Part shown: positions 12,747 through 31,270 of the stretch, piece by piece
Layout: every line of letters starts with the position of its first letter
Numbering within the stretch: the stretch's first letter is position 1
NCBI GenBank assembly: GCA_963770495.1
Contig: CAVYQA010000025.1
Span: forward strand, 1,792 to 65,791
Source: Chitinophagales bacterium
GTDB taxonomy: Bacteria; Bacteroidota; Bacteroidia; Chitinophagales; CAVYQA01
Direction of reading: 5' to 3'
DNA length: 64,000 bases
Notes under the pieces: model-generated
The model's database searches: none
The model's input: only the letters and a program-made list of their open reading frames with translations
What the model was told of the DNA's origin: nothing
Translations under genes and position numbers: made by a program

Positions 12747-12754
12747 GTTGAGGC

Positions 12755-13027
12755 ATAAGGCGTAAGTGGTGTTGACAAGAACTTTGAACTTCCTGACAAT
12801 TAATTTTTTAATCGCCTGTTTTTCAATGCGCCCATGCATAACTGTCAGGAAAAGTTGTTGTCGGTTTCTTGTCGGTATTGTTGTCAGTAGTTGTACGGAT
12901 TTCCCATGTTGCGTAAACTGCTTTTCGGATAGCTTGTGGATTTGTTTTTGGTTTAGCATAAAATTTAGTTCGCCCCAAAATTAGCGGGTAACTAAAAGCA
13001 GTGAGAAAAGTTGGGACAGAAAGTTTG
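12755..13027. repeat. ~275-bp non-coding dispersed repeat, copy 1
   Basis: Aligns with 30769..31044 in the same orientation; internal IR TTCCTGACA (12790)/TGTCAGGAA (12843). Confidence 0.92.
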
Positions 13028-13038
13028 CGGAGCCTTTT

Positions 13039-13157
13039 AACTCCCCTCCTGTTTTTAGGAGGGGATAGAGCTGTGCGCGGAGGCGGGGAGGTTTTTTATT
13101 TTTACCTCCTCAGCTCTGCTTATGGCTATGCCTCCTCCTAAAAACAGGAGGAGAGCT
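13039..13157. repeat. Inverted doublet of REP-like family B (REPIN-like)
   Basis: CTCCCCTCCTGTTTTTAGGAGGGG... followed by inverted ...CCTCCTCCTAAAAACAGGAGGAGAG. Confidence 0.8.
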
Positions 13158-13356
13158 ACGTGCTTACTAAGCCTTGTAGTTTTACCCCACTTTTTTTCTT
13201 GTCAATTCTTGTCAAGAATGAAAAAGTGAGATTGATTATAAATTAATTATATATTTATTTATTACAACTGTGAAATGAGCATGCTGATTGGGAAATGAGT
13301 ATTCAATACAATAAAACGAAATAGGTACAAACTACACCGAGTGGGGTGTAATATTT

Positions 13357-13364
13357 ATCTTTGA
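13357..13364 (+). promoter_or_regulatory. -7 promoter element for cyclase/HEPN operon
   Basis: TATCTTTG matches TAnnTTTG, ~30 nt before ATG 13394. Confidence 0.55.
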
Positions 13365-13393
13365 TAAAGATAATTTATCTAAATAAAATTTAA

Positions 13394-14185
13394 ATGAGTA
13401 AAAAAGAAATAAAATGGGAAGAAAAAGCAAAAAGATTTGTTGCTTTCTTGGATATAATGGGGTTTAAAGATATGATGATGAAGACTAGTCACGAATATGT
13501 TTTAGATAAAGTAACAATTACAAAAAGATTAAAGGAATTATTGATTGATGGTACAAAAGAGGGTTTAGAAATGACAACTAATCTTAGGTCTTTCCAATTC
13601 TCAGATTCTACTTTCATCTTTTCTGCATCGGATACTGCACAAGATTTTTCCAATCTTTTACATCAATGTAGAATTTTATTAAGATTCTGTTTTGAATATA
13701 AAATACCTATTAAAGGAGCTATATCGCATGGAGTGATTACAGCAGATTTTAAGAATTCTATTTTTGTTGGTCAACCAATTATTGATGCATATTTACTCCA
13801 TGAAGAATTGCATATGTTTGGTGCTATTCTTGATCATAATGCTGAAAATAAATTAAATGAATTCATTTTAATTAAAAGGTTCAAAGAAGTAATAGAATTT
13901 GAAGCTATACAATATAAAACTCCAACCAAGAATGGAAGAATATATCATTATTGTATTAAATGGCCATTTTTATCATTTCCAACACCAAATAGTGAAAGTC
14001 ATTATGCGTTAGATTTAAAAGATAGAGAAACAATTAAAAAATTCTACACCACTGTCTCTGGTAAGCCAAGGATGTATGTAGATAATACTATTGAATTTGT
14101 TGATTTTTTAATTGGAGTAGAAAAAGAAAAACATCCAAATATTAAAGAATTTCCATTTCATTTAATTCATGATAAAAATAAATAA
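13394..14185 (+). CDS. Class III nucleotidyl cyclase-like (palm-fold) protein
   Basis: RFVAFLDIMGFK (first Asp), FSDS (second Asp), KGAISHG, GQPIIDAY; AT-rich. Confidence 0.7.
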   Translation: MSKKEIKWEEKAKRFVAFLDIMGFKDMMMKTSHEYVLDKVTITKRLKELLIDGTKEGLEMTTNLRSFQFSDSTFIFSASDTAQDFSNLLHQCRILLRFCFEYKIPIKGAISHGVITADFKNSIFVGQPIIDAYLLHEELHMFGAILDHNAENKLNEFILIKRFKEVIEFEAIQYKTPTKNGRIYHYCIKWPFLSFPTPNSESHYALDLKDRETIKKFYTTVSGKPRMYVDNTIEFVDFLIGVEKEKHPNIKEFPFHLIHDKNK

Positions 14186-14193
14186 TTTCGATA

Positions 14194-14973
14194 ATGAAAT
14201 TAAATAAAACTTTTTGGATAAATAATGAATTTATTAAACGAGGAATATTCGTTGAATCTTTTTCGGATTCTTCTGCAGAATTAATACAAAGGGCATACGA
14301 ACTCTGGAATCATGCTAAAGATATTTTAGAAAGCCATTCGACAAAAGATTTTTTATCTGATGCAATTTCTAATCTCAATAAGGTTATTGGATTGAGAATA
14401 AAATTATTAAATGATATTTATCATTTCAATCAAAGTCCATTTAAAACAAGGGACAAAAAAATATACAATCAGCTTGGGGAATTTGAAATATTAAGACCAA
14501 AACTAATTAATGAGATAACTACCTTTCGAAACAAAATTGAACATCATGATGAAACGCCACCTACGTTAAATAAATGCAAGGACTTTATAGAGATCTGCTG
14601 GTATTTTTTAAAAGCTACTGACTTACCTATTTTGCATATTAATGATAGTATATTATTTTGTTATGATGGGCAAGACCCTTATGGAATTGGAATCGAAATT
14701 AATTTCAAAAACAAATGGGAAATAAGTATTTCAGGATGTGTTAAACCATCACAACTCGTATCATTTAAAACCCAGGGGTTTATTGAAATAAATTTGGATA
14801 GACACGAAACTGCAGAACAATTATTTAATCGATTATCTAAAGGAAAAGGCTCATCTAAGGCTTTCTATAAAGAAAGAGAAATAAATCAAGAAGATATTTT
14901 TATAAATGGAATATTGTTACCTAATAAGGATGAGTTTAAGGAAATTGTCAGAAAATATTTCAAAGCAATATAA
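14194..14973 (+). CDS. Putative HEPN-domain protein
   Basis: Helical N-half with RNKIEH (Rx4H) motif; 8 bp after the cyclase-like gene; AT-rich. Confidence 0.6.
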   Translation: MKLNKTFWINNEFIKRGIFVESFSDSSAELIQRAYELWNHAKDILESHSTKDFLSDAISNLNKVIGLRIKLLNDIYHFNQSPFKTRDKKIYNQLGEFEILRPKLINEITTFRNKIEHHDETPPTLNKCKDFIEICWYFLKATDLPILHINDSILFCYDGQDPYGIGIEINFKNKWEISISGCVKPSQLVSFKTQGFIEINLDRHETAEQLFNRLSKGKGSSKAFYKEREINQEDIFINGILLPNKDEFKEIVRKYFKAI

Positions 14974-14994
14974 TTCCTTCTTTGCTGTGTAACC

Positions 14995-15101
14995 CCTTTC
15001 GCCGTTGGTTGGTGTTAGCGCAAGCAACAAGCATTGCCCACCAACAGCAGGGGGGTTTTATCTTCCCAATCTTTATTGGTGAAAAAACACCAGCAAAGGC
15101 G
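14995..15101. repeat. REP-like double hairpin element
   Basis: CGCCGTTGGTTGGTG...CACCAAC and TTGGTG-AAAAAA-CACCAGCAAAGGCG, with outer CGCC/GGCG complementarity. Confidence 0.6.
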
Positions 15102-15222
15102 CAAAGCGTTATGCTACCTCAACAATTAACGTTTAACAATTAACGATTAACTATTTTATACAACCAAAAGAAGAAAATACTAAATTCGCACCCTCAAACT
15201 TTTATAACCTACAAAAACCAGT

Positions 15223-17261
15223 ATGAAATATCTATTTATTGCCCTCACCATTGTGTGCGTGTTCGGCGCCTGCACACAAAAACCGGCTGCACCCGCCTAC
15301 ACAGCCATTGATGTGAAAGAATTTGACAGCACTTATAATGCCGGCGATGATTTCTTCGACTATGTAAATGCCAAATGGATAAAAGCCAATCCCATTCCTG
15401 CCTCGGAAAGCCGTCTGGGGCTCATTTAATATTCTTATTGACAGTAACAGGGCGGTATTGCACCGTATTCTTATTAATGATGCTAAAGACACTACTGCCG
15501 CAAAAGGAAGCGTAACTCAAAAAGTAGGTGATTTTTTTGCCAGCGGCATGGATACCGTTACCATTAACGCCGCCGGCTATAAACCTATTCAGCATTGGCT
15601 CGATTCGATTAATGGTATTAAAAATACGAACGACCTTATCCGTGTATTAGCGCAGGAGCACATTTACGGCAGACGGCGCCATTTTTAATTTTGGCGTTAC
15701 TCAGGATGCCAAGAACAGTGATAAGGAAGAAGCCGACATTGAACAAGGCGGATTGAACCTGCCCAGCCGCGATTATTATTTACGCAAAGACCCCAAAACA
15801 CAGGAAATCCGTGATAAATATCTGCGCTATATTGTTTCCATTTTTAAGCTTATCGGAGATGATGATAAAACAGCCACTGCAGCGGCAAATTCAATTCTTG
15901 ACATGGAAACACAATTGGCAACATCTTCACTCGACCGTGTTGTCTTGCGCGACCCCTATGCATCATACCACCTCATGACAATTGACCAGCTAAAAAAATT
16001 AACCCCGAACATTAACTGGGATATTTATTTCGCCACTATTCAGGGTCCTAAGTTTGATACGTTAAATGTCGGCGAGCCCGATTTCTTTAAGCAGGTGAAC
16101 AAAATGTTTACCGGAGTTAAATTAAACGACTGGAAAACGTATTTAACCTTTAGTGCAGTTAACGGATGTGCCGGTTATTTAAGTAAAGATTTTGTGGATG
16201 CTCATTTTGATTTCTATGGCAAAACTATGAATGGCGTTAAACAACAGCAGGCGCGCTGGAAACGGGTACAATCTGTTATAGACCGAAACATAGGCGAAGC
16301 GCTTGGGCAGGAATATGTAAAAGTTGCCTTTCCGCCCGATGCTAAAGCTAAAGCGCTTGACCTTATCAGTAATTTAAGAGCATCACTTGCCGAGCGTATT
16401 AAGGAGCTTACCTGGATGAGCGATAGCACTAAACAATATGCTTTAAAGAAACTTGCTGCTATAACTGTGAAAGTGGGCTATCCCGACACATGGCGCGATT
16501 ATTCCTCCCTTACCATTGACCGTGGCCCGTATGTGCTTAATGTAATGCGCAGTCAAAAATTTGAGTTCTATCGCGAGTTAAATAAAATCGGCAAACCGGT
16601 TGACCGCACCGAATGGGAAATGACTTCGCCTACAGTAAATGCCGGCTATAATCCTGCAAATAATGAAATTATTTTCCCCGCAGGTATATTACAGCCGCCT
16701 TTCTTCAGCCCCTTAGCCGATGATGCCGTGAACTACGGCGGCATTGGCGCAGTGATTGGACATGAAATGACACACGGCTTTGATGACCAGGGCAGGTTAT
16801 ATGACCTTCACGGCAATCTTAAAAACTGGTGGACAAAACAAGATTCAGCTAACTTTGTGCAACACGCTGAACTATTGGCAAAACAATTCAGCAGTTATGT
16901 GCCGGTTGATACCATGCACATAAACGGTCACTTTACGCTTGGCGAAAATATTGCCGACCTTGGCGGCATAACAATTTCATACTTTGCGTTTAAGAAAGCC
17001 GAAGAAAAAAATCCCGCTGATACTGAAAAAATTGACGAGTTAACTCCCGACCAGCGCTACTTCATAAGCTTTGCGCAAATATGGCGCGGAAACATAAGGG
17101 ATGAGGCGCAACGTCAGCGCCTGCTTATTGACCCGCACTCGCCTGCCAAGTATCGTGTAGACGGTGTTATGCCTAATGTGCCCATGTTTGCAAAAGCATT
17201 TGATGTGAAAGCCGGGCAGAAAATGGAAAACCCCGATAGCTTATTGGTTAAGATTTGGTAG
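15223..17261 (+). CDS. M13 (neprilysin/PepO-like) metalloendopeptidase lipoprotein; two frameshifts (~15414, ~15673), probably sequencing errors
   Basis: Lipobox-like FGAC, DDFFDYVN, VNAGY, HEMTHGFD, GENIAD, DPHSP; three ORF pieces join if one base is removed at each CAGACGG/CCGTCTG. Confidence 0.9.
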
Positions 17262-17287
17262 TAGTTTTTAAAATTTAATTATATTGC

Positions 17288-17320
17288 ACAGCCCTGTAGA
17301 AATGCAGGGCTGTTTGTTTT
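17288..17320. terminator. Intrinsic terminator between convergent genes
   Basis: ACAGCCCTG-TAGAAATG-CAGGGCTGT followed by a T-rich tail. Confidence 0.8.
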
Positions 17321-17351
17321 ACTTCACTTCCAACCTTACCGCAGACGAGGC

Positions 17352-19349
17352 TTATTCTTTTACAACTTTAAATATTTCGCTGGAAGAATTATTGCTAACC
17401 GATAAGAAATAAACACCGCCCGGCAATTCGCTAACATCAATAGTTTCTTTTTTGATTTCTGAATTATATAAAGACGAATAAACAACTTGTCCAATCACAT
17501 TTACAATTTCAATAGTATTAATTGATAACTGTTCGCTGTTCACCGTTAACAGTTCATTGGCAGGATTCGGATACACAGTCCACTGTCCCTTGTCAACCGT
17601 CAATTGATTAATGCCCGTTGCTGTTACGTCCATAGTATCAGATGACGTGCCACAGCCATTAGCTTCATTTGAAACAATAACAAAATAATTGCCGTTTACT
17701 GAAAAAATAAGGTTCTGGCTGGTATCTCCGGTTAAAATGGAATCATTATGATACCACTGGTTATCATACTCTGAACTTGAAGTTAGCGTATCGCCATTTT
17801 GGATAAATGTTGGTTTATTTGGAGAAGATGTAACTGAAACAGTTTCAGTATCTGTAACAGAACAACCAAATGAATTTGATCCTGTAACATAATAAATGGT
17901 TGAATTATTTAAATTAAAAATTACACTGCTGCCTGTTGAATCACTTAAACCTTCTGAAGGACTCCATTGATATGAAGTTGCTCCGCTGGCAACCAATTGA
18001 ATCGGTTGCCCCTGGCAAGTGGAGGCAGGTGATGGATTTATTTGCAGGTTGGGTAAGGTATCCACAGTAACTACTATACTTGTTGAAGCATAACAAACCG
18101 TACCGGATATGGAATAAGTAGTTGTGACTGTTGGTGTAGCGCTAACTGTTAACCCCGTACTGTCGTAATTTAAACTCGTGCCCGGCGACCATGAATAATC
18201 ATTTCTGCCCTTTGCAGAAAGGGTTATGCTTTGCCCGTAACATATGGATGGTGAAGCAGGATTGGTAGTAACAATAGGCGAACAGGGCGACAATTCTCTT
18301 ACCTGATTGTTATCGGCAAAATATACGTTACCAAATGAATCTATTATTATTCCTTGACCCCACTCCATAGAAGCTGTATCGGGATTGCCGTAATAATCTG
18401 AATAGCCGTACACACCATCACCGGAAATAGTGGTAATAGTATCATTCGGGTATACTTTTCTGATATAGTTTTTAAATTCTTCAACAATGTATAAATTATT
18501 AGAATCATCCACACCAATATCATACGCCCCTCCTATTTCAGCGTTGGTGGCAAGCCCGTCATCACCAGTATGCCCAACTGTGCCATTACCTGCAACTGTA
18601 GTAATAATACCATTGGTATCCACCTTTCTAACGTATCCGGCAGTACTTATATAAATATTGCCCTCGTTATCCGCTGCTACACCTGTGGGACCCCATATGC
18701 CGGCGTCAGTAGCAGGACCACCATCCCCATTATTAGCCGCAGTACCATTACCGGCAAAAGTGGTTATAATATCGTTGGTATCTATCTTTCTTACTACATA
18801 ATTATAATCGTCAGCTAAATAAAGGTTACCATACTTATCTGTAATAATTCCATATACGCCACTAATTTCTGCATCGGTAGCCGGACCGCCATCACCTGTA
18901 TAACCATCCGTTCCAGTACCTCCATAAGTTGTTATAATACCATTTTTATCTACTTTTCTTATGCGGCGATGATTCCAATCAGAAATATATAATACTCCTG
19001 AAGGTGCTATAGCTACTCCCAATGGTTCTGACAAACCTGCATCAGTTGCAGGTCCTCCGTCATTCAAATGATATGCAGTATCAGAACCTGCAACAGTAGT
19101 TATAATACCCTTGGTATTTACTTTTTGAATACGACTGTTCAGCTGGTCGCCTATATAAAGATTACCTGAGTCGTCAACGGCAACACCCCAGGGCGCAGAT
19201 AAGCCCGATGCAGTGGCTGGCCCGTTATCTCCTGTATCGCTGCGAGCTTCAATGCCGGCTACCGGCTCAATAACATAAGATTGTGCTCTGCTTACTTTAG
19301 CTGCAATTAAAAAAATTAGAACTGAGGGTAGTATAATTTTTCTATTCAT
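17352..19349 (-). CDS. NHL-repeat beta-propeller T9SS cargo protein
   Basis: GDGGPATDA/GIITTVAG repeats, Ig-like stalk, C-terminal VYPNPA...LPGGVYF..KVVKE CTD. Confidence 0.9.
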   Translation of the reverse strand: MNRKIILPSVLIFLIAAKVSRAQSYVIEPVAGIEARSDTGDNGPATASGLSAPWGVAVDDSGNLYIGDQLNSRIQKVNTKGIITTVAGSDTAYHLNDGGPATDAGLSEPLGVAIAPSGVLYISDWNHRRIRKVDKNGIITTYGGTGTDGYTGDGGPATDAEISGVYGIITDKYGNLYLADDYNYVVRKIDTNDIITTFAGNGTAANNGDGGPATDAGIWGPTGVAADNEGNIYISTAGYVRKVDTNGIITTVAGNGTVGHTGDDGLATNAEIGGAYDIGVDDSNNLYIVEEFKNYIRKVYPNDTITTISGDGVYGYSDYYGNPDTASMEWGQGIIIDSFGNVYFADNNQVRELSPCSPIVTTNPASPSICYGQSITLSAKGRNDYSWSPGTSLNYDSTGLTVSATPTVTTTYSISGTVCYASTSIVVTVDTLPNLQINPSPASTCQGQPIQLVASGATSYQWSPSEGLSDSTGSSVIFNLNNSTIYYVTGSNSFGCSVTDTETVSVTSSPNKPTFIQNGDTLTSSSEYDNQWYHNDSILTGDTSQNLIFSVNGNYFVIVSNEANGCGTSSDTMDVTATGINQLTVDKGQWTVYPNPANELLTVNSEQLSINTIEIVNVIGQVVYSSLYNSEIKKETIDVSELPGGVYFLSVSNNSSSEIFKVVKE

Positions 19350-19440
19350 GTAAATTTTTTATAAGCTGTAAATCTCCGAAATAGCTTTGACAAATAAAAT
19401 GCTTTAAACATGCTATTTTTAAACTAATTTTTAACCGCCA

Positions 19441-20646
19441 ATGAGCTTTAATGCCTACTATATTCTTATTTTTTTAAGCGGCGTGGTAATTATTTCTTAT
19501 TTGTTCGACCTGCTGGCAAGCCGCACCAAAATACCGTCTACTGTTATGCTGCTCGCCACAGGCATTGTGCTCAAGTTCGTTTGTGATTATTTTAATATCG
19601 CTCTTCCGCCCATGGACCGCTACCTGCAACTGTTCGGTATCATTGGGCTTATATTAATTGTGCTTGAAGGAACACTTGACCTTGAACTCAGCCGTGAAAA
19701 AGTGCCCATGATACTTAAATCGCTCGCCACAGCCCTATTCACCTTATTTTCTTCCTCATTTGCCATTGCCTATTTAATTCATTATTGGCTGCACGTACCC
19801 ATGCAAAGCTGCCTGGTAAATGCCATTCCAATGGCTATAACTAGCAGCGCTATTGCCATTCCGAGTGTGGCATCGCTGCATAAATCCAAAAGCGAATTTA
19901 TAGTTTACGAGGTAACCTTTTCCGACATACTCGGTATAATGATGTTCGATTTCGCCATTCAAAATACACGTCTTGACAGCGCTGCCTTTTTAAATTTAGG
20001 GCGTGACATAGGGATTATTATCACCATTTCCATTTTGTGTTGTATGCTATTTATATTTTTTATGGAACGTATTCAACACCATATAAAATTTTTCCTTATC
20101 ATTTCCCTGCTGGTGCTTGTTTATTCAATTGGCAAAACCATGAACCTCTCTTCGCTTATTCTCATTTTTGTTTTCGGAATTGCCATTAATAATCACAGGC
20201 TATATATCAGGGGAAAACTCATGAAGTTTTTAAGAGTGGAAAAAATTCAGGCGGAATTAACACAGTTAAAAATGATAACCGGCGAATCCGCCTTTCTCAT
20301 TCGCACTTTTTTCTTTATCATTTTCGGGTACTCTATTCATCTTGAGGTGCTGATGAACGTAAATGTATTACTGATTGGCGCCTGCATCATGGCGATAATT
20401 TTAATTGTGCGGCTTTTCTACCTGCCGTTTATTTCACGCTCAAATTTATTTCCGGCTGCTTTCATCGCCCCGCGCGGCTTGGTCACCATACTCCTGTTTT
20501 ATAACATACCTGCGCAATTTGCTATTCCCGAATTCGGAGCCGGTATTTTATTTTTTGTGGTGCTGGTTTCTTTATTAATTATGATGCTGGCTCTTATTGG
20601 CAGCCGCAATCGCCCGGTTGATACTATTACTGAAGAGCCATTGTAA
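19441..20646 (+). CDS. Cation:proton antiporter (CPA) family protein
   Basis: ~12 TM helices, TSSAIAIP, EVTFSDILG, PRGLVT. Confidence 0.88.
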   Translation: MSFNAYYILIFLSGVVIISYLFDLLASRTKIPSTVMLLATGIVLKFVCDYFNIALPPMDRYLQLFGIIGLILIVLEGTLDLELSREKVPMILKSLATALFTLFSSSFAIAYLIHYWLHVPMQSCLVNAIPMAITSSAIAIPSVASLHKSKSEFIVYEVTFSDILGIMMFDFAIQNTRLDSAAFLNLGRDIGIIITISILCCMLFIFFMERIQHHIKFFLIISLLVLVYSIGKTMNLSSLILIFVFGIAINNHRLYIRGKLMKFLRVEKIQAELTQLKMITGESAFLIRTFFFIIFGYSIHLEVLMNVNVLLIGACIMAIILIVRLFYLPFISRSNLFPAAFIAPRGLVTILLFYNIPAQFAIPEFGAGILFFVVLVSLLIMMLALIGSRNRPVDTITEEPL

Positions 20647-20681
20647 TTTTTATTATTTTTAGCTTCTCAAAACCACTAACT

Positions 20682-21246: not shown

Positions 21247-24200
21247 ATGAAATCACAGTTTCTACAATCCGTTGTAGGATTATGTATTGGCGTCTTCCTG
21301 AGTACGGGAACACTCTATGCCCAGATTATTCCTACAAAAATTAATTACAGCACACCGTTAGTCGTTAATTTTAAACAATTAGCCGATTACCAGTTATTAC
21401 ACACGGGAAAAACTCATCGCAGCATAGAGCAGGGTGAAGACAGGGATAAGGATTTTAAATTTATTCCTAAACCGGTTCCTGCAGATGCAGTTACTTTTCC
21501 TGTAACACTGCCGGCTGTTTCATCGCGCGCTACCTCTCCTGCCCCTACCGCATCATTTAACGGCGTAGAGGATAATGGTACATTAATACCACCCGATATT
21601 GAAGCGGCTGCCGTTCCCACTTACGTGCTTGAAACCACTAATCAGCAATTTAATATTTATACTAAAACAGGTACCTTACAAAGCACACTTACCATTACTA
21701 CGCTATTGTCACCAACCGGAGGCAGTGGATTTTTTGACCCTCATGTTGAGTACGACGCTAATGGCGGCAGGTTTATTATTGCATTGGACGGAACCTACTC
21801 TAATGGCGACGGCGGCATATTCATTGCCGTTTCGCAAACCAGCGACCCAACGGGTAACTGGTATGTTTACTCCTTCGATGGCATTGGCGACAAAACCGAT
21901 TTCTTGGATTTCCCTATGCTTGGTTTTAATGCCAACTGGATTGTAGTTACCGGCAATGATTTTATTAAAGGCAGCAGTCCTGTTTATGCAAAAATATATG
22001 TATTAAACAAAGCTGACCTTTATAGCGGCACTGAAGGCACTGTAACCACATTTACCGACGAAAGCTCATTTAGTGTTTGCCCCGCACAAACCAATGATAA
22101 TTCCCAAACTACCGAATACCTTGTAGAGGACTGGAACGGTAATTCCGGCGGAAGCGGCTATGTGCGTTTAGCTACTGTAACCGGAGCGGTATCATCACCC
22201 GCTTATGCATTGGGAAGTACGCTGGGAGTAACTTCTCCATGGAGTGAAACCGACATTAATGCTAAACAAGAAGGAAATTCAAATGCTATTAATACCGATG
22301 ATACAAGAATAGACTATGCAGTGGTAAGCAACGGTTCAATGTGGTTCAGCCACACTGCATTTTTGCCCGCTACATCACCCACTTACAGCGGGGTTGACTG
22401 GTGGGAGATAAACCCTGCCACTCCATCAGTTACACAATACGGACGTTTGGCAGTAAGCGGTACATTTTATTATTATCCCTGCATTAATGTAAATAGTAAT
22501 GGCGATGCTTTGTTAGACTATAGTGTTTCTTCATCTACGCAATATGCCGGTTCAGCCTATGCTTTCCACGCTTCATCTGATGCAGCCAATACTATGGAAG
22601 GTGGTTATGTATTTAAAGCGGGTGTAGCAGGATATTACAAAACCTACGGCAGCGGGCGCAACCGTTGGGGAGATTTCAGCGGTGTTGCCGTTGACCCGGC
22701 AAATAATTCGTTCTGGGCTTCCAATGAATGGGCAAATACAAGCAACGATTGGGCAACAGCCCTTGCAAATGTTCCGCCGAGTTCATCGTGCACTGTTGCA
22801 ACCGGTGAAACAACATCGAATATTGGAACAGACTCTGCCACCTTTTCATGGGCGGCAGTTTCAGGGGCAGCAAGCTACAACGTGCAATACCAGGTTGTAG
22901 GCGCTTCCACATGGACATCTGCTTCAACCACTTCAACATCATATAAAGTCACCGGTTTAACACCGGGTACAAATTACGCATGGCAGGTACAAACTGTTTG
23001 CTCTGCGGGCGGCTCATCTGCTTTCAGCAGTTCAACAGATTTTACTACCACCACTCCGCCTTGCAGTTTAGCTACAGGTATGGGTACAACCAACATAGCA
23101 AACAATTCTGCTACTTTTGGATGGACAGCAGTTTCGGGTGCTTCAAGCTACAATGTGCAATACCAGGTGGTAGGCGCTTCCACATGGTCTACAGGAACAA
23201 CATCAACCAATTCATATAATGCGAGTGGTTTAACAGCGGGAACAAATTACGCATGGCAGGTGCAAACCGTTTGTTCTGATGGCGGCTCATCGGCATATAC
23301 GGCATCAACCGATTTTACCACAACAGGCACTGCGCCATGCAATGCTCCCACAGGCATGACCACCGGAAGTATTACTGCTTCTTCCGCCACGCTATCATGG
23401 GGAGCAGTATCGGGAGCAGCAAGTTACAATATGCAATACCAGGTTGTAGGCGCATCCACATGGACAACCGCTTCAACCACTTCAACATCATATCCTATCA
23501 GCGGTTTAACAGCCTCTACAAATTACGCATGGCAGGTTCAAACCGTTTGCTCCGGCGGCGGAACATCATCATTTACGGCTTCTACAGACTTTACAACCCC
23601 GGCAGCTGTTAGTTATTGCTCTTCAAAAGGCTCAACAGCTTCAGAGTATATTCATATTGTAAAAGCTAACACCATTAGCAACACCGTGAGCAATGATGGA
23701 GGCTATGGCAATTACACCAACCTTAGCACCAATATTACAGCAGGTGTCGGGTTTAGTGTATCAGTTTCTCCCGGATTCAAAAGCACTACTTATACAGAAG
23801 CCTGGACTATTTTTATTGATTACAACCACACCGGCACTTTTGAATTGATTGCAGAAGGAAGAAGTACAGGAACAGTTTCGGGCACCATTAGTGTTCCGAG
23901 CACCTCTGTTAACGGCAGCACAAGAATGAGAATTGTAATGCACCGCAGCACTTATGAAACCAATGCTTGCGCCACATTCACTAATGGCGATGTGCAGGAT
24001 TACACGGTTAATATAAGTGGAGGCACAGCGTCACCTGTTTATGCAGATGATGGTAACACCAACGCTGTTACAACATTAACGGGTAATAACGACGTTGAAG
24101 CCGTATTGTATCCAAACCCAACCAATAATATGGTAACTGTTCATTACACCAATCCAAATAACACCAATGTAAAAATTGAAGTTATTTCAGTTACGGGTCA

Positions 24201-24339: not shown

Positions 24340-24368
24340 CTAATCAGCTAAGAGGTAAAACCCCTAAT

Positions 24369-24404
24369 GCAAAAAGCCCTGCTTCGGCGGGGCTTTTGCT
24401 TTTT
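24369..24404 (+). terminator. Intrinsic terminator
   Basis: AAAAGCCCTGC-TTCG-GCGGGGCTTTT followed by a T-run. Confidence 0.85.
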
Positions 24405-24418
24405 ACTAATTACCATAA

Positions 24419-24486
24419 ATATGACTAAAATCATATTCATTAATGATATTCCTCATTTTTTTGATTACCCTACCCAAATAGTTTTG
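24419..24486 (+). promoter_or_regulatory. Two ATGA-N6-TCAT palindromes (Crp/Fnr-like boxes) plus -33/-7 promoter of oxidase operon
   Basis: ATATGA-CTAAAA-TCATAT (24419), AATGA-TATTCC-TCATT (24442), TTTG ~24460, TAGTTTTG 24479. Confidence 0.65.
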
Positions 24487-24503
24487 CCGTCGAATTAAAA
24501 AAC

Positions 24504-24716
24504 ATGAAACACTCAACCAGAGATACAAAAGAATCCAAAAGCAAATTATTAAACACAGAAAAAGAAAAAGCCTACCTGATTGATGCACAAATTGCAAAAG
24601 AATTTTTATATGAGCTTAACCTGCTGGAACATGGATGCCGTTGCGGTGGCGCTTGCAAAAAGGAAGGGCATAGGCACAAAGACAAAGAATGCAATCATCA
24701 AACTCATAAAAACTAA
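24504..24716 (+). CDS. Small Cys/His-rich protein leading the ba3 oxidase operon
   Basis: HGCRCGGAC...HRH..ECNH; directly after the promoter, 5 bp before subunit IIa. Confidence 0.6.
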   Translation: MKHSTRDTKESKSKLLNTEKEKAYLIDAQIAKEFLYELNLLEHGCRCGGACKKEGHRHKDKECNHQTHKN

Positions 24717-24721
24717 CGATT

Positions 24722-24853
24722 ATGGAAGATAATAAAACCAATGAAGAAAAATTTGTACCAAAGGGGGCTATTGCCTTCTTTATTTTATTAATACTGCTTG
24801 GCGGTGCAATATGGTATGGTGTGTTTTTTTTAATGTTATCAAGAACGGCTTAA
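24722..24853 (+). CDS. ba3-type cytochrome c oxidase subunit IIa (CbaD-like), 43 aa, not in ORF track
   Basis: MEDNKTNEEKFVPKGAIAFFILLILLGGAIWYGVFFLMLSRTA; PKGA..single TM..W...F...R pattern of subunit IIa; sits before subunit II. Confidence 0.85.
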   Translation: MEDNKTNEEKFVPKGAIAFFILLILLGGAIWYGVFFLMLSRTA

Positions 24854-24865
24854 AAACTATTTATT

Positions 24866-25318
24866 ATGGACAAACTTGAAATCAGAATCATAGTAGTTAC
24901 AGGTCTTTTACTCGCCTCTTTTTTATTTTCAGTATTATGGGCGCTCGATAAGCGGCATATTGATGTGCCCGCCTGTATTCCTTATGACAGCAAATATGCC
25001 ACATCAAAAATCACGCAGCTCGATTCTAATACCTACCAGGTATATGTAGTTGCAAGAATGTGGCAGTTCGACCCGCCGGAAATTGATGTGCCCGTGGGAA
25101 GCACTGTTGATTTTTATCTTACCAGTAAAGATGTGACCCACGGATTTAATATTGCCGACAAAAGCGTGAATATGATGGCGGTTTATGGTGGTATTACTGA
25201 AACCACGGTTCATTTTGATAAGCCCGGTACGTATAGTATTCTATGTCATGAATACTGCGGCGCCGGGCATCAGAGTATGACAGGGAAGGTAGTAGTTTCT
25301 CCAAAAAAACAAAAATAA
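24866..25318 (+). CDS. cbaB: ba3-type cytochrome c oxidase subunit II
   Basis: Single TM, DVTHGF, CuA motif CHEYCGAGHQSM. Confidence 0.92.
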   Translation: MDKLEIRIIVVTGLLLASFLFSVLWALDKRHIDVPACIPYDSKYATSKITQLDSNTYQVYVVARMWQFDPPEIDVPVGSTVDFYLTSKDVTHGFNIADKSVNMMAVYGGITETTVHFDKPGTYSILCHEYCGAGHQSMTGKVVVSPKKQK

Positions 25319-25324
25319 TACACC

Positions 25325-26997
25325 ATGAAAATAAGTAAACCACTCCGTTTTGTAATTCTGTTTGAATTATTCTTCCCCGCAGTGCTGCTTATACTCGGCA
25401 TTTATCACGGGTTAATGCAAACCATTTACCGCTGGGGCTTATTCACTCGGCTGCCGAGGTGCATCTTGATTATTACCAGGGGCTAACGTTGCATGGTGTA
25501 ATAAATGCCATTGTATTAACTACATTTTTCGCTGTTGCTTTCGGTCATGCCATAATGGCTTACTACCTGAAAAAAGAACCCGGTATACGATTAGTGCAAC
25601 TCTCTTTAATTCTTATGACAGTGGGAACATTGCTGGCAGCGTGGGCAATGTTGTCGGGAAATGCTTCGGTGTTGTATACTTTTTATCCCCCGTTAAGGGC
25701 TGATCCCATATTTTATATTGGAGCTGTATTGTTAATTGTTGGTTCATGGGTGGCATTTTGGGCTTGGATAAGTTTGTATATCGGCTGGCGTAAAGAACAT
25801 AAAACCGAGAAAATACCTTTAGCGGTTTTAGGCAACATGGTAAACTTTACGGTTTGGCAGGTATGTACACTTTCCGTGGCAACAGAGGTGCTTGTATTCA
25901 TTCTTCCCTGGTCTATGGGATGGACGCACACTATTAATATTCCTCTTTGCCGCACCTTATTCTGGTTTTTCGGTCACCCATTAGTGTATTTCTGGTTATT
26001 GCCGTCTTATATCATGTTTTATACCTTTCTGCCTAAACTGGCCGGTGGAAAATTATACTCAGGCGTTGCCGGACGGTTTAGCTTTATGTTGTTTATAATC
26101 CTGTCCATTCCTGTGGGAGTGCATCACCAGTTTGGCGAACCGGGGCTTCTTCCTTCAACCAGGATGTTCCAGACTATTTTAACCTTCGCCATTACTTTAC
26201 CGAGTTTTATAACCGCATTTACCATAGCCGCAACATTAGAATACGCCGGCAGGCTGCGGGGGTCAAAAGGATTATTCGGCTGGGTGGCCAGATTGCCTTA
26301 CCTAGATACTAATAATTTTTTATTCAGTTATTTAATCTGCGGGCTCATTCTTTTCATTTTCGGCGGGCTCACCGGAATGGTTAATGCATCGTATTCATTA
26401 AATAGTATGGTGCATAATACGTCGTGGGTGCCGGGGCATTTCCACATGACGGTGGCAGGTCCCGTTTTTCTTGCAATTTTAGGAATGACTTTATACTTAA
26501 CTTCAAAACTTACCGGCAAACCTGTTCGCTTTAAGAATCTTAGTGTAATGGTTCCTTACTTATGGATGATTGGAATGCTCATTTTCTCTTACGGTTTAAT
26601 GTCGGGCGGTTTAATAGGCGAGCCGCGCCGTACCAACCTCGGATTAACTTATCTTAATCCCGCAAGCTCTCAATACAGACCCGATTGGATACCTTCTACG
26701 GCACTTGCATTAGTGGGCGGCACAATCATGACCATTTCTGCTTTATCTTTTTTCATTACGTTTTTTGGAACGGTATTCAGCAAAAAGAAGGAAGAACCCA
26801 TTCTTGAATTTCCTGAATCGGAGTTATTACATGAGGAGCCGACGATTAGTATATTAAACAGATTTACGCCATGGATTATTGTAATGTTTATTGTGCTTCT
26901 GCTTGCTTATGTGCCTGCTATAATGAGCATCATGAAATATATCGGTCCCGGAGCCCAGCCGTTTTCTCCTGATAATCCCATTCCTATGACATTCTGA
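25325..26997 (+). CDS. cbaA: ba3-type (B-family) heme-copper oxidase subunit I; frameshift near 25432
   Basis: YYQGLTLHG, FWFFGHPLVYFW, GVHHQF, VHNTSWVPGHFH, PRR; N-terminus MKISKPLRF starts at 25325 in another frame. Confidence 0.92.
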
Positions 26998-27008
26998 TAG
27001 TATAAGAA

Positions 27009-27722
27009 ATGGCACAAAATATTTCATATAACGAACACGATGCAGGGGCGCAAGCCAAAACTGAAATTCAAAAAAAGACTTTCCTTGCCGACACGCACGT
27101 ATTCATTTATTTCGCTTCGATTGTTTTAATTGCAACCTTATCCTATGGGGTAGTCCACTGGTATCAAAATAATAAAGCCGGGCTTCCTTTTTATGGCGAC
27201 AATGGTAAAATTAATTCCGCCAATGCCCATTTTATTGTGCCGCAGTTTTCATTCACCAACCAGGACGGGCAAACGATTACTTCTTCATTTATAAAAAATA
27301 AAATTTGGGTGGCTGATTATTTTTTCACCAGTTGCGGCAGCAGTTGTCCTAAGCTGACCAAATCATTAAAAACAATTCAAACAGAATTTAAGAGTGATGA
27401 TAATGTGCGGCTCCTCTCCTTTTCTGTAGACCCCCAACATGATACTCCCCAGCGGTTAACTTCCTACGCAAAACAGTTTGACGCGACAATAGGACAATGG
27501 CAGTTTTTAACCGGCGAAAAAACGGAGCTCTATCGTTTTGCGCGCAATGGTTTATTTATAACCGCTGCTATGGGAGATGGCGGTGAAAATGATTTTATAC
27601 ACAGTTCAAGTTTGGTGCTGATGGATAAAGACGGGCATATTCGCGGCTATTACGACGGAACAAGCAACGGCGATGTGCGGCAGCTTATAAAAGATATAAA
27701 ACGGTTAGAGAAAAATAATTAA
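27009..27722 (+). CDS. SCO family copper chaperone
   Basis: FFTSCGSSCP (CxxxC), SVDP..DT, FIHS, IRGYYDG. Confidence 0.92.
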   Translation: MAQNISYNEHDAGAQAKTEIQKKTFLADTHVFIYFASIVLIATLSYGVVHWYQNNKAGLPFYGDNGKINSANAHFIVPQFSFTNQDGQTITSSFIKNKIWVADYFFTSCGSSCPKLTKSLKTIQTEFKSDDNVRLLSFSVDPQHDTPQRLTSYAKQFDATIGQWQFLTGEKTELYRFARNGLFITAAMGDGGENDFIHSSSLVLMDKDGHIRGYYDGTSNGDVRQLIKDIKRLEKNN

Positions 27723-27734
27723 AATATAATTTAT

Positions 27735-28286
27735 ATGCGTAACACAATTTTTATTGCACTCATTTTAGCAGCAGCCATGATGCGCACTACATCATTACAG
27801 GCGGCAAATGCCGATGACGGCAAAAAACTTTTCATCAGCCATTGTTCGAGCTGCCACATGATTGGACAGCGATTGGTAGGTCCCGCTTTGAAAGACGTGT
27901 ATAAATCGCAAAGTGAGGATTGGATAATTTCATTTGTGCATTCTCCCGTAAAAAAAATTAACAGCGGCGACACCACAGCAGCTAATTTAGCCAAACGTTT
28001 TGCACCGATTATAATGCCCGACCAGGTTGATTTAAATGACAACCAGATTAGAGATATTATTGCTTATGTTAAGGCGCAAAGCGAAATGATTGCCACTGCT
28101 GCACCTGCCGCTGCTCCAGTTGTTGCTTCTACTGCTGCCGCCTCCGGTTATGCACCTGTTACCTGGCTCGACTATTGGTTCTGGTGCGGCTTAGCCACGC
28201 TTATTGCTCTTTTATTGTATGGCTTGGTTATTCTCGAGCGCGCTTACAAAGCAAAGCAAGACTATTTACTGTCGAAGAATAAATAA
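27735..28286 (+). CDS. Membrane-anchored class I cytochrome c
   Basis: Signal peptide, CSSCH, VGPAL, axial Met IMP, C-terminal TM. Confidence 0.9.
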   Translation: MRNTIFIALILAAAMMRTTSLQAANADDGKKLFISHCSSCHMIGQRLVGPALKDVYKSQSEDWIISFVHSPVKKINSGDTTAANLAKRFAPIIMPDQVDLNDNQIRDIIAYVKAQSEMIATAAPAAAPVVASTAAASGYAPVTWLDYWFWCGLATLIALLLYGLVILERAYKAKQDYLLSKNK

Positions 28287-28554
28287 AAGTTAGTTTACAA
28301 TATTACATAATATAATCCTGAAAATTATTGACACCTGCCAATAATTTCAAATCGCCATATACACTTTGTCTATCTTTTTCCTATTTTTAAACCCATCATA
28401 CGTTATTTGATATTAAAAGCTTATTAAAGAATTGAATATATAAATAATCTAATATTTTGGCTATCAACATAATATAAGTATATAAAATTGTAGGCAAGGA
28501 ATTTGCATAATATACGACATTAGCAAAAGTCTAATTAGTAAAATTTATAAAACG

Positions 28555-29712
28555 ATGAAAACTCTATTGAAAGTTTTAACAGTAACAGTGGCGCTTTACA
28601 TGGGCAATTTAATTGTGCCACAAAAAGCACAGGCACAAGTAAGTTTCCAGGTATTTTATGATGGACTAAGCCCTTACGGCACGTGGGTCACTGACCCGAC
28701 CTACGGTTATGTGTGGGTGCCAAATGCCGGCGCCGATTTTACGCCTTACGGCACTAACGGGCATTGGGTATTAACTGATGCCGGATGGACGTGGGTGTCG
28801 GATTATCCGTGGGGATGGGCGCCTTTTCACTATGGGCGCTGGTATTATGATGCTACTTATGGATGGATTTGGGTGCCTGATACCGTGTGGGGTCCTGCCT
28901 GGGTTTCGTGGAGAGTGGGCGGCGGTTGCTATGGATGGACACCGTCCTGGGTCCCCGGAATAGGCATTGGCGTTGACTTTTATGCTCCGCCCGATAGATG
29001 GCTGTTCTGTGACCAGGCGCATTTTTGTGACCCTTATGTTTACCGTTATTATTTACCGAGAGGAAATTATGCAACTATTTATGCAAGAACTACAGTAATC
29101 GGCGGCACCTATGCAGATGCAGGGCGTCATGCTACTTACTATTACGGTCCAAGAAGAGATGATGTGGAACGGGTGACACATACAACTATACGACCTGTTG
29201 CCATACGCGAAAGCTCAAGAGAGGAAAAGTCATCTGTAAGCGGCGGGGCGCTTACTATCTACAGACCTGCCGTACAAAAAACAGCTAATGGAGCAAGACC
29301 AGCACCCACACATGTAGCAACATTGAGAGATGTGAAACCTGTTGCTCAAAAAAGTGGTACTGTTGCAACGCCAGCCCGCGGTCAAACCACGCGCACCGGT
29401 GCAACACATCCGGTATCGGCATTGCCAAACGCTAATCGCGCTCAACATACTACGAACGTACCTATCAGCAAGCCACAGTATCAACCTGCCACACAGTATC
29501 CGGCGCCTTATACGGTACATCCGGCTAAAACCCAACCTGCTGCTGCACCGCAGAGAAGCGCGTCTCCACAACGAAGTGCAACGCCTTCACGCAGTGCCGC
29601 TCCGCAGCACAGTGCAGCACCTGCCCACAGCGCGGCGCCGCAACGGAGTGCAACTCCCCAGCGAAGCGCACCCGCAAAGCAAGGCGGAGGAAAAAAGCCG
29701 GGGGGCAGATAA
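28555..29712 (+). CDS. DUF6600-like secreted Trp/Pro-rich protein with low-complexity tail
   Basis: FYDGLSPYGTW, WGWAPFHYGRW, WGPAWVSWR; PQRSA repeats. Confidence 0.85.
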   Translation: MKTLLKVLTVTVALYMGNLIVPQKAQAQVSFQVFYDGLSPYGTWVTDPTYGYVWVPNAGADFTPYGTNGHWVLTDAGWTWVSDYPWGWAPFHYGRWYYDATYGWIWVPDTVWGPAWVSWRVGGGCYGWTPSWVPGIGIGVDFYAPPDRWLFCDQAHFCDPYVYRYYLPRGNYATIYARTTVIGGTYADAGRHATYYYGPRRDDVERVTHTTIRPVAIRESSREEKSSVSGGALTIYRPAVQKTANGARPAPTHVATLRDVKPVAQKSGTVATPARGQTTRTGATHPVSALPNANRAQHTTNVPISKPQYQPATQYPAPYTVHPAKTQPAAAPQRSASPQRSATPSRSAAPQHSAAPAHSAAPQRSATPQRSAPAKQGGGKKPGGR

Positions 29713-29755
29713 TACTTACTGCAAAAGTCTTTCATATTTATGAAAACTATAATTA

Positions 29756-30751
29756 ATGAGTGAATTAAAAGTCGGTGTATTAGGGGGTGGCAGCTGGGCA
29801 ACGGCATTGACTAAAATTATTACATTAAAAAACCAACCGGTTAACTGGTGGATACGGCGAACCGAAACGGTGAAATTTATAAATGAAAATAAGCGCAATC
29901 CTAATTATTTAAGTTCTGTTGAATTTGATATCTCTAAAATAAATGCCGGCACCGACCTGCTGCAAACGGTTAATAATTCCGATATAATTATTGTTGCCAT
30001 TCCTTCCGCGTTTTTGAAAGACACGTTGAAAGAGCTGCCCAAAGATTGTTTTAAAAATAAAATTGTTGTCTCGGCAATTAAAGGAATGATTCCCGGCGAC
30101 AACTTTATTATTGCAGAATTCTTTAACCATTATTATGATGTGCCGCTGGAAAATGTGGTGGTCATCAGCGGTCCGTGCCATGCTGAAGAAGTGGCGTTGG
30201 AGAAACTCTCCTACCCCACTATTGCTTCTAAAGGTGAAAAAAGCTGCAAAACCATTTGTGATTTGCTGAATTGCGGTTTTATTAAAACCGTTCCCTCCGA
30301 TGATATTTACGGCACTGAATATGGCGCTGTGCTGAAAAATATTTATGCTCTTTGTGCGGGAATCTGCCACGGGCTTGGCTATGGCGATAATTTCCTGGCT
30401 GTGCTTATCTCCAATGCCATTCGCGAGATGAAACGGTTTGTGGATGTTGTTCACCCCATTAACCGCGATATAAATGATTCTGCCTATTTGGGCGATTTGA
30501 TGGTGACGGCTTACTCGCAGTTCAGCCGCAACCGCACCTTTGGAATGATGATTGGCAAAGGCTACAGCGTGATTGCCGCGCAACTGGAAATGAATATGGT
30601 GGCTGAAGGCTACTATGCGTCTAACTGCGTTCACAACGTGAATAAAAAATATAATGTGCCGATGCCGATTGCCGAGGCGGTGTATAATATCCTCTATCAA
30701 AAAGTTTCGGCAATGGTTGAGATTCGGCTGCTTACCAATGCGCTTAATTAA
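29756..30751 (+). CDS. gpsA: NAD(P)H-dependent glycerol-3-phosphate dehydrogenase
   Basis: GGGSWATAL, SGPCHAEEV, LKNIYA, GDL..T..S.FSRN, VAEG. Confidence 0.96.
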   Translation: MSELKVGVLGGGSWATALTKIITLKNQPVNWWIRRTETVKFINENKRNPNYLSSVEFDISKINAGTDLLQTVNNSDIIIVAIPSAFLKDTLKELPKDCFKNKIVVSAIKGMIPGDNFIIAEFFNHYYDVPLENVVVISGPCHAEEVALEKLSYPTIASKGEKSCKTICDLLNCGFIKTVPSDDIYGTEYGAVLKNIYALCAGICHGLGYGDNFLAVLISNAIREMKRFVDVVHPINRDINDSAYLGDLMVTAYSQFSRNRTFGMMIGKGYSVIAAQLEMNMVAEGYYASNCVHNVNKKYNVPMPIAEAVYNILYQKVSAMVEIRLLTNALN

Positions 30752-30768
30752 GGCGTAAAGCATAAGGG

Positions 30769-31044
30769 ATAAGGCGTAAGTGGTGCTGACAAGAACTTTT
30801 AACTTCCTGACAATTAATTTTTTAATCGCCTGATTTTCAATGCGCCCAGGCATAGCTGTCAGGAAAAGTTGTTGTCGGGTTCTTGTCGGCATTGTTGTCA
30901 GTTGATTAACTAAGGCATAAGTCGTAAGGGGTAAGGCGTAAGTGGGTAGCTTGTGGGTTTGTTTTTGGTTTAGCATAAAATTTAATTTGCTCTAAAATTA
31001 ACGGGTAACTAAACGCGGTTGGCAAAGTTGGGACAGGAAGTTTG
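30769..31044. repeat. ~275-bp non-coding dispersed repeat, copy 2
   Basis: Aligns with 12755..13027; the central ~40 bp is replaced by a TAAGGCG-type heptamer array. Confidence 0.92.
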
Positions 31045-31098
31045 TTGTGCTGATATGCTAATGTGCTGATTGATTATACACAGTGCTTGAATAGCAGG

Positions 31099-31154
31099 TT
31101 ATTCCCTTCCTTTTTCAAGGAGGGGACTGAGCTATGAGCGTAGCCGGGGTGGTT
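31099..31154. repeat. REP-like element family B
   Basis: TTATTCCCTTCCTTTTTCAAGGAGGGG...GCCGGGGTGGTT; inverted near-copy at 34903..34958. Confidence 0.8.
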
Positions 31155-31270
31155 TAATTAAATTCTTTTGGTTTGGTGAATGCCCGCCCGGCTGAACGCC
31201 GTTCGGACGGGAATATTCACGACAAAGAACGACGTAGAAATAGCCTACGCCGAGTGGGGATTTTATCCAT

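Follow-up and report, generated by a model that had tools for sequence, protein, structure and literature searches.

Ordered, one-sided arrays of non-coding repeats beside low-GC islets in a Chitinophagales-like genome

The closest described analogue of the repeats reported here is the system of Neisseria intergenic mosaic element (NIME) arrays and minimal mobile elements (MMEs), for which two mechanisms also considered below, a transposase acting in trans and homology-assisted exchange, were proposed in the portion of the account used here (Bentley et al. 2007, PMC1797815). Clusters of repetitive extragenic palindromic (REP) sequences and bacterial interspersed mosaic elements (BIMEs), REP doublets forming hairpins (REPINs) together with REP-associated tyrosine transposases (RAYTs), and REPs as targets of insertion sequences (IS) are treated in the excerpts used of three further studies (Tobes & Pareja 2006, PMC1525189; Bertels & Rainey 2011, PMC3116915; Ton-Hoang 2012, PMC3333891). 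Moreover, the transposase of ISPpu9, an IS110-family element of Pseudomonas putida, moves the non-coding ssr9 module in trans into REP targets, and solo modules remain, according to the part of the report cited (PMC12288879). Here, two intergenic stretches, termed locus A and locus B, were analyzed in a window of 64,000 nucleotides (positions 1792-65791 of contig C25) from a Chitinophagales-like genome of 4.05 Mb, 32 contigs and 39.9% GC; all counts refer to this single draft genome. Both loci carry a chain of short non-coding repeats, an array, between a core gene and a low-GC islet, and the same repeat families form clusters at 165 intergenic sites. The units keep a fixed order, point the same way and adjoin low-GC islets predominantly at their 3' side. 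This pattern suggests a site at which foreign genes, often for defence, are gained.

Small defence islets in bacterial chromosomes mostly encode no mobility function themselves, which raises the question of their route of arrival. More than 40 islets with one recognizable, oriented, non-coding marker make this question testable.

Order and polarity of the repeat arrays

A preliminary description of the window had reported the same units in the same order at both loci, namely heptamers, a repeat of about 275 bp, a hairpin, a motif of about 60 bp and AT-rich cargo, and this succession was recovered, with a motif of about 50 nt. The repeat (12751-13027 at locus A and 30765-31044 at locus B) shows 83% identity over 281 nt in BLAST comparison, with sub-blocks of 94% (12751-12888 versus 30765-30902) and 87% (12927-13027 versus 30944-31044). 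The heptamer TAAGGCGTAAG, with up to one mismatch allowed, occurs eight times in the window against an expectation of 1.13, a count reached by none of 100 shuffles, and seven of the eight matches lie at 12756 and 30749-30942. Both stretches had been regarded as copies of one common platform; instead, they are pieced together from repeat families, six at the least, that are dispersed independently of one another. The BLAST copy-depth profile along both stretches steps sharply, and the supposed platform is therefore a chain of separately dispersed units. These abut each other or are joined via unique linkers; no common separator was seen in either array or in the copy-depth profile.

Iterated nhmmer searches over the genome yielded 246 copies of the modules M1 (46), M2 (6), M3 (73), M4 (62), M5 (33) and M6 (26), distributed over the 165 intergenic clusters; 11 of 240 module copies fall within called genes. 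The clusters of the window are the richest in the genome, comprising seven modules at locus A and five at locus B. The canonical order M1<M2<M3<M5<M6, by which clusters were oriented, is kept in 50 of 52 adjacent pairs, and all modules lie on a single strand in 35 of the 36 clusters featuring at least two kinds of non-M4 module. M4 alone alternates in orientation.

A low-GC tract, defined as at least 600 bp starting no more than 400 bp from the cluster, accompanies 52 of the 125 oriented clusters on the downstream side and 14 on the upstream side, against a background of 17.4% of 1686 intergenic sides; the downstream excess corresponds to a binomial p of 2.4e-10 and the comparison of 52 versus 14 to a sign-test p of 2.8e-6, both values being indicative only. 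Likewise, when 1.5-kb flanks were evaluated at a GC cut-off of 0.34, values below it were obtained downstream of 46 of 123 clusters and upstream of one, an asymmetry that was stable over cut-offs of 0.30-0.36. Starting from the low-GC tracts themselves (n=583), an inward-pointing module was located at the boundary in 39 cases and an outward-pointing one in eight. Sub-families of M1, M3, M5 and M6 exhibit both low-GC association and polarity, and the REP-type control families (f1, f5, f9, f10, f19, f21, f26, f28, f32, f36 and f54) exhibit neither. Tabulation of module copies throughout the genome, as the preliminary description had called for, therefore revealed housekeeping genes 5' and low-GC islets 3' of oriented arrays rather than a coincidence between two copies.

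These results bear on the possibility that the arrays are selfish repeats of the REP or MITE type (MITE, miniature transposable element with inverted repeats), which would pile up wherever insertion is tolerated, for instance in spacers by newly acquired DNA, and would play no role in the gain of islets. The intergenic DNA of this genome is indeed rich in repeats (67.6 of 588 kb with at least four other copies each; 116 families determined de novo), many clusters are islet-free, and IS elements and DUF559 units nest at the same places, all of which would fit passive accumulation. However, such a process does not predict co-orientation, the near-strict order or a sidedness of one versus 46 clusters, nor does it predict the contrast with equally abundant REP-type families that are unassociated with islets, and it is considered unlikely.

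Alternatively, the arrays could serve their neighbours as expression signals, i.e. as promoters, terminators, insulators or small RNA genes. M1 and M6 fold, and the AT-rich box at the M5 end is one which we take to resemble the Bacteroidota -7 element. Moreover, a separate pair of repeat families, f15 and f33, comprising a doubled TACCTG-N4-CAGGTA palindrome and an AT-rich box, is located directly 5' of about 20 different co-directional low-GC genes (e.g., at C17:158417-158489, C21:2083-2155, C32:66675-66745 and C5:79018-79090). Low-GC DNA lies downstream of 18 of 23 copies of this pair, which is absent from loci A and B and may represent a shared operator/promoter of islet genes. The arrays themselves show no bias in gene direction: around oriented clusters, the upstream gene presents its 3' end in 51 cases and its 5' end in 72, the downstream gene is convergent in 63 and co-directional in 60, and the M3 core is co-directional with genes in 37 and convergent in 48 instances. 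This random orientation argues against a promoter or terminator role, which was rejected on that ground. In addition, the cargo of locus B is encoded on the minus strand and converges on its array, and an Rfam search of the window returned a single match, a tRNA. An expression role of the arrays thus appears very unlikely.

Loci A and B and their repeat units

Array A begins 3 nt past the stop codon of an HsdR_N-like gene (12300-12746, plus strand; Pfam HSDR_N_2, E 2.6e-41), which is the core gene on its 5' side and is divergent from holA; distant relatives retain this gene pair in 67 of 80 loci. On the plus strand, the array comprises a block of TAAGGNN heptamers, termed M0, that ends in TAAGGCGTAAGTGG (12750-12772), the MITE-like M1 with its two stems (12773-12888), M2, a low-copy linker with a copy depth of 2-7 that joins M1 to M3 (12889-12975), and M3, a unit of about 50 nt with the core GTTGGGACARRAAGTT (12976-13026). 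These are followed by an M4 doublet to which no strand was assigned, i.e. a REP-like hairpin (13038-13092) and its inverted copy (13104-13158) in REPIN-like arrangement. M5, featuring two TTCTTGTCAA words and an AT-rich tail (13192-13265, plus strand), and M6, extending from TGAATATTCAC through a hairpin to CCGAGTGGGG (13296-13346, plus strand), complete the array, M6 being the final unit ahead of islet A.

At locus B, the core gene 5' of the array is gpsA (29756-30751, plus strand; Pfam NAD_Gly3P_dh), whose stop codon is the first TAA of the M0 block (30744-30783). Further units on the plus strand are M1 (30788-30903), a second M0 block replacing part of M2 (30906-30945), a partial M2 followed by M3 (30946-31044), one copy of M4 (31099-31152), an extra GC-rich hairpin unit that array A lacks (31165-31210; 94% identity over 54 nt to C32:70343-70396) and M6 (31211-31259), again the final unit ahead of the islet. 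The REP-like hairpin announced for both loci is hence present. The terminal motif (...CTACRCCGAGTGGGG) is likewise found at both, corresponding to the two M6 copies; the adjoining segment 31165-31210, which had been included in it, is a different unit. The third M4 copy of the window (34904-34956, minus strand) is embedded in another REP-type cluster.

M1 is a small non-coding element of about 130 nt with terminal inverted repeats, as in a MITE; its outer stem GACAAGA/TCTTGTC is invariant or nearly so in 29 copies, and its tail holds two or three TTGTTGTCG words. M0 blocks occur on either flank of M1, and M0-M1 units are repeated in tandem at two loci. The hairpins of M1 and M6 are kept by compensatory changes. 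In M1, whose inner stem covaries, a total of 347 of 377 cells are paired versus 133-173 when the partners are slid, a result equalled by none of 500 shuffles, and six stem pairs show two-sided changes. M6 measures 50 nt and contains a 7-bp hairpin; between its two sub-families, at least three pairs of the hairpin are altered in a compensatory manner. Pairing holds in 126 of 135 cells, three pairs show two-sided changes and none of 1000 shuffles equals this, the presence of only two stem types implying few independent events. The M3 core was found in 85 exact-pattern copies, all of them intergenic. M4 is an imperfect palindrome with 62 copies, three of them genic, and qualifies as a REP element, which M1, M3, M5 and M6 as whole units do not.

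Further repeats in the window are coding and unrelated to the arrays. Three tandem repeats of about 273 bp (22789-23600) lie within the gene of a 1030-aa FN3/GEVED protein of the type IX secretion system (T9SS), and five repeats spaced by about 165 bp (18416-19125) within the gene of an NHL-repeat T9SS protein. The T9SS-sorted proteins encoded in the window place the genome in the Bacteroidota. Elsewhere in the genome, the 19.4-kb contig C13 shows 1.2-kb flanks of about 69% GC at two places (~15.9-16.1 kb), compared to 40% for the genome, and is probably a contaminant in the bin.

Islets, inserted elements and competing explanations

Islet A (13348-14990, plus strand) has a GC content of 0.26-0.29. 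GC values drop from 0.41-0.48 before the cargo to 0.26-0.29 over 13500-14999, the drop spanning 1.6 kb. Its two plus-strand genes (13394-14185 and 14194-14973) gave no Pfam or PADLOC match at usual thresholds, and single-sequence and profile searches of their proteins against PDB sequences returned nothing useful. The first has 557 unnamed homologues, and the motifs F-x-D-x-x-G-F-K and F-S-D are invariant in its family; of 31 members sampled, four weakly match Guanylate_cyc (best E 0.016). The second has five homologues, an invariant R-N-x-I-E-H, corresponding to a HEPN-like Rx4H motif, and a sub-threshold match to HEPN_Apea (E 0.022). Based on these motifs and faint matches, the earlier designation of the pair as cyclase and HEPN is plausible, albeit tentative. 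Next to islet A, an M13 peptidase gene is broken across three frames (15223-15429, 15458-15688 and 15753-17261; region 15223-17261), being either a pseudogene or the product of a consensus error.

Islet B (31260-33790, minus strand; GC 0.29-0.35) encodes an XcyI-like restriction enzyme (31458-32330) and a type II methyltransferase (32303-33724), so that the restriction-modification (R-M) pair and the opposite strands of both cargos (A plus, B minus) were confirmed. Here GC falls from 0.41-0.48 to 0.29-0.32 over 31500-32999, and the drop spans 2.5 kb. Past the islet follows a SprT-like gene on the core side (33803-34435, minus strand; Pfam SprT-like, E 3.2e-6).

Throughout the genome, the 52 clusters with a downstream tract correspond to 42 unique islets, each with one to six called genes. 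Recognized defence or toxin-antitoxin genes were detected in 14 of the 42 islets and not in the other 28. They encode Cas9, two GmrSD/HEC-type enzymes, a type IIG R-M enzyme, the R-M pair of the window, an HNH/restriction endonuclease cluster, AbiGi, a PD-T4-6-like kinase, a PtuA/AbiEii-like ATPase fused to a methyltransferase, PDC-M28B with DUF6932, a DEDDh exonuclease with a PD-(D/E)XK nuclease, a DndB/DpdB-like protein, ParE and PIN. The remaining islet proteins are mostly without a family. Among the 85 islet proteins screened (81 from other loci and four from the window), none matched recombinase, transposase or integrase families. Furthermore, no match to Phage_integrase, rve, IS110 or Y1_Tnp, the families to which this search was confined, was obtained on C25, in agreement with the earlier statement that the window is devoid of integrases and transposases.

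The nearest upstream genes (n=97) are housekeeping genes, encoding TypA, trigger factor (Tig), ClpP, RadA, ATP synthase subunits, pyruvate kinase, DnaX, SufBC, RecA, UvrA and TilS, among others; four IS110-family transposases and one of the IS3 family also belong to this set. Two PADLOC thresholds were compared. At E<=1e-20, 11 of 85 islet proteins and three of 97 upstream proteins were matched, the latter three being named SufC, ABC-transporter ATPase and UvrA by NCBIfam. This contrast is confined to strong matches and emerges after the generic ATPases have been named.

At the far edges, both window islets end in TAACCCC(T/G)TTCG on the plus strand, present as TAACCCCTTTCG at 14992-15002 and as TAACCCCGTTCG at 33786-33796, the latter directly ahead of the stop codon of the sprT-like gene. 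This word reproduces the M6 tip CGAGTGGGG imperfectly and in inverted form, and has only five intergenic copies genome-wide. As a general far-edge motif, CCCCNNTCG was tried and rejected; apart from both islets of the window, it marks the far edge of one further islet and is missing from the remaining M6-led islets. Inward-facing arrays enclose about five islets (e.g., C32:66098-70358, C16:196299-199024, C16:89550-90869 and C2:35558-39347). A further arrangement, at C7:9323-12436, is an inverted duplication of a 248-aa gene with M6, M3 and M3 about a centre of 890 bp, each arm continuing with f15 and a low-GC gene.

These edges have to be considered for the explanation that array and islet together form one non-autonomous cassette, moved in trans, with the array as its conserved non-coding end and a very short other end; inward-facing pairs would then resemble TIME-COMP elements or integron mobilization units (IMUs). 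Polarity and fixed order would suit the end of an element, and so would the inward-facing brackets and the inverted M6-tip word beyond islets A and B. On the other hand, 73 of the 125 oriented clusters are islet-free, the GC content of arrays (~0.41) is genome-like as opposed to 0.26-0.32 for the cargo, the junction module varies, the far-edge word is missing from the other ten M6-led islets, and far edges are mostly module-free. Taken together, such a cassette seems improbable, at about the same level as passive accumulation.

Elements of other kinds were found to be inserted at the arrays. For a 1.36-kb IS3-family element with five copies and one fragment (C7:169931-171293, C18:2084-3450, C17:314794-316155, C17:365878-367240, C31:47721-48451 and C2:184199-184272), each of the six left ends is preceded, at a distance of 0-105 nt, by an M3 core of identical orientation. 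The element carries the tips TGTCTTGTCC... and ...TTTGGGACAA..., which resemble M3 and a word common to M1, M3 and M5; the sequence that the element has in common with these three modules is limited to TCTTGTC(C/G). Position and likeness suggest insertion targeted beside sequences like the element's own ends. Both copies of a second IS3-family element are located within arrays. IS110 subfamily b, of 1277 bp, abuts truncated M4 (C17:40370-41650, C2:186506-187785 and C32:64836-66112) and appears to have inserted into it; for another IS110 subfamily, of 1640 bp, two copies are separated from M6 by 60-270 nt.

Moreover, an inverted M4 pair brackets four of the seven genes for DUF559, a Vsr-like endonuclease (C2:341985-342302, C6:25117-25431, C2:100976-101293 and C5:202577-202894); next to a fifth, the doublet occurs on a single side, and another REP family brackets a sixth. 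DUF559 and the REPIN-like repeat thus look like a small mobile unit, and the M4 doublet of array A looks like such a unit minus its gene. A literature search, supplementary files excluded, found no published report of a link between DUF559 and REPs. The suggestion that DUF559 genes might be flanked by the platform motifs is accordingly borne out for M4.

The same suggestion had been made for RAYT genes and for tyrosine recombinases, and failed in both cases. The genome encodes one clear RAYT and four weaker Y1-like proteins. The RAYT gene (C2:34371-34817; 148 aa, Y1_Tnp E 4e-27) lies between inverted hairpins, CCGTCAG...CTGACGG, of family f74 (11 copies; C2:34319-34900), and the Y1-like genes between f22/f108 (C5:158192 and C30:234521) or between their own inverted repeats, never between M modules; RAYT as the mobilizer of the M modules was consequently rejected. 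Regarding tyrosine recombinases, the genome has six PF00589 matches, none of which is found on C25 or less than 5 kb from a cluster. Classic REP/BIME clusters spread by RAYT, or an integron-like array of attC sites in the manner of clusters lacking integron-integrases (CALIN), would agree with the REP-like palindrome of M4, its inverted doublets and the presence of RAYT and Y1-like genes. In view of the non-M repeats around these genes, the position of the recombinase matches, the co-orientation of the modules, which do not alternate, and the strand distribution of islet genes (50 in the direction of the array and 50 opposite to it), which is unlike that of integron cassettes, an origin of this type can hardly be maintained.

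The explanation ranked first, to which we attribute an even chance, is that the arrays are NIME/BIME-like mosaics whose 3' edge is a hot spot of insertion or recombination. In this view, loci A and B are well-preserved representatives of a mosaic that is specific to the lineage and in which M0, M1, M2, M3, M5 and M6 keep their order and common orientation, with M4 nested inside as an unrelated REP-like doublet. Such arrays occupy about 165 intergenic sites, and three kinds of DNA are found at the 3' edge, namely low-GC islets (often with defence genes), IS3- and IS110-family elements, and M4-bracketed DUF559 genes. As one part of the mechanism considered most likely, the TTCTTGTC/GGGACAAGAA words of M1, M3 and M5, which resemble the ends of the resident IS3-family element, and the hairpins of M6 and M4 may be recognized in trans by transposases or recombinases encoded elsewhere. 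As its other part, the arrays could provide portable homology for swapping the adjacent islet with incoming DNA. The hot-spot reading is favoured on two grounds. Insertions other than islets, namely both IS3-family elements, the IS110 elements and the DUF559/M4 units, demonstrably select these same sites, and for one of them the distance to M3 and the orientation towards it are strict. Islets and those insertions, moreover, share one side of the array. Anatomy, order, polarity, cargo content, nested insertions and the lack of a recombinase in cis were observed; we infer that the arrays cause the gain of islets rather than accompany it, and that the acting enzyme would be one of those encoded elsewhere; the choice between a transposase in trans and homology-assisted exchange of array-linked DNA is a matter of inference as well.

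The capture hotspot acted on in trans, as proposed in the preliminary description, is supported in part. The oriented arrays throughout the genome, the defence cargo, the lack of recombinases in the islets and the IS3, IS110 and DUF559/hairpin insertions are in line with it; no empty-site allele, excised form or acting enzyme was recovered, and most oriented clusters carry no islet. A bolder version considers the arrays as the cis half of an undescribed dispersed gene-capture system, in which a recombinase or transposase encoded elsewhere would read the M6 hairpin together with the TTCTTGTC/GGGACAAGAA words in their common orientation and would load or exchange defence cassettes, each with a promoter, at the 3' edge, always opposite the core gene, thereby building an integron-like bank over dozens of sites without attC or IntI. 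This is speculative and regarded as doubtful.

Several points weigh against the hot-spot reading. The islet-free clusters (73 of 125) and the mostly module-free far edges, including those of both window islets, count here as well; conversely, only 39 of the 583 low-GC tracts have an inward module, and most tracts are without an array. The unit touching the islet is M3 in 17 cases, M5 in 13, M6 in 12, M1 in eight and M4 in two, and there is therefore no single attachment site, nor would a hot spot as such give a reason for the confinement of islets to the 3' side. At the PADLOC threshold of E<=1e-5, the difference between islets (21 of 85) and upstream genes (15 of 97) is not significant (Fisher p 0.14). 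The repeat copies are interrelated, as the inverted duplication on C7 illustrates, so that their independence is overstated. Gene calls were obtained from a home-made hexamer caller, and islets were delimited by GC alone.

In addition, the nearest relatives are too distant to reveal an empty or swapped site. The genome is the sole member of its family among the genomes searched, and all 30 relatives searched with 6 kb of locus A were too distant for an empty-site comparison. Among 80 metagenome loci obtained with GpsA, the best identity was 63% and neither sprT nor DUF6600 was found beside gpsA in any; among 80 genome loci obtained with HolA, the best identity was 56%. Module hidden Markov models gave no match in these 160 loci, and the M1 covariance model matched none of 150 genomes. 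Array A DNA searched against 400 other genomes of the order, with two candidates scored for each, yielded one match, restricted to a 28-nt hairpin. In viral contigs, the M6 pattern had no match and the M3 core three, all within coding sequence and attributable to chance. Two soil read runs contained 0.07-0.08 of the query words, and their contigs were short, sparse and identical, without a joint across the islet, a coverage that is uninformative.

Comparison with known systems

If it is true that the arrays direct insertion, they would constitute a new kind of landing pad and a signpost to unknown defence genes. If they are bystanders, their strict order and one-sidedness still demand an explanation.

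Integrons, CALIN and the pdif modules of Acinetobacter comprise small cassettes that are recombinase-less and often carry defence genes, combined with structured repeats and an enzyme encoded elsewhere. The islets described here differ from them in that no IntI is involved, cassettes are dispersed singly, gene orientation is random, the repeat is located on one side only and an Xer-like pair of 28-bp sites is absent. TIME-COMP elements and IMUs are composed of cargo between two inverted miniature elements; the window islets do not have this layout, and about five other loci do.

M4, as a high-copy palindrome forming inverted doublets, and the landing of IS110- and IS3-family elements in or by repeats recall REP/BIME clusters in the portions of the literature cited above. 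Unlike in the REP/RAYT systems outlined there, the resident RAYT pairs with another hairpin, M4 brackets DUF559 genes, and M1, M3, M5 and M6 are longer, ordered and polar. Compared to ISPpu9 as excerpted, no module resides within the conserved body of the IS110 copies of this genome, and circular forms were not observed.

Regarding the NIME arrays, the passages used of the Neisseria account (PMC1797815) describe non-coding arrays of several short-repeat families between conserved genes, which matches the situation found here. They also report variable neighbouring genes, R-M cassettes in MMEs and opportunistic IS insertions, and in this genome low-GC islets and IS elements adjoin the arrays. 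The 20-bp dRS3 inverted repeats that separate units in that account (PMC1797815) have no counterpart between the units described here. Moreover, the cargo consists of low-GC, defence-type islets as opposed to the surface-antigen genes of Neisseria, and relative to the NIMEs of those passages the present arrays are distinguished by fixed order, co-orientation and one-sided pointing, as well as by belonging to another phylum and consisting of other sequences. A search of the literature, not extending to supplementary files, found no published description of ordered polar arrays beside defence islets. The arrays of this genome thus differ from the known systems in four features: the order of their units is fixed, the units are co-oriented, low-GC defence islets are linked to one side of them, and DUF559 is paired with a hairpin.

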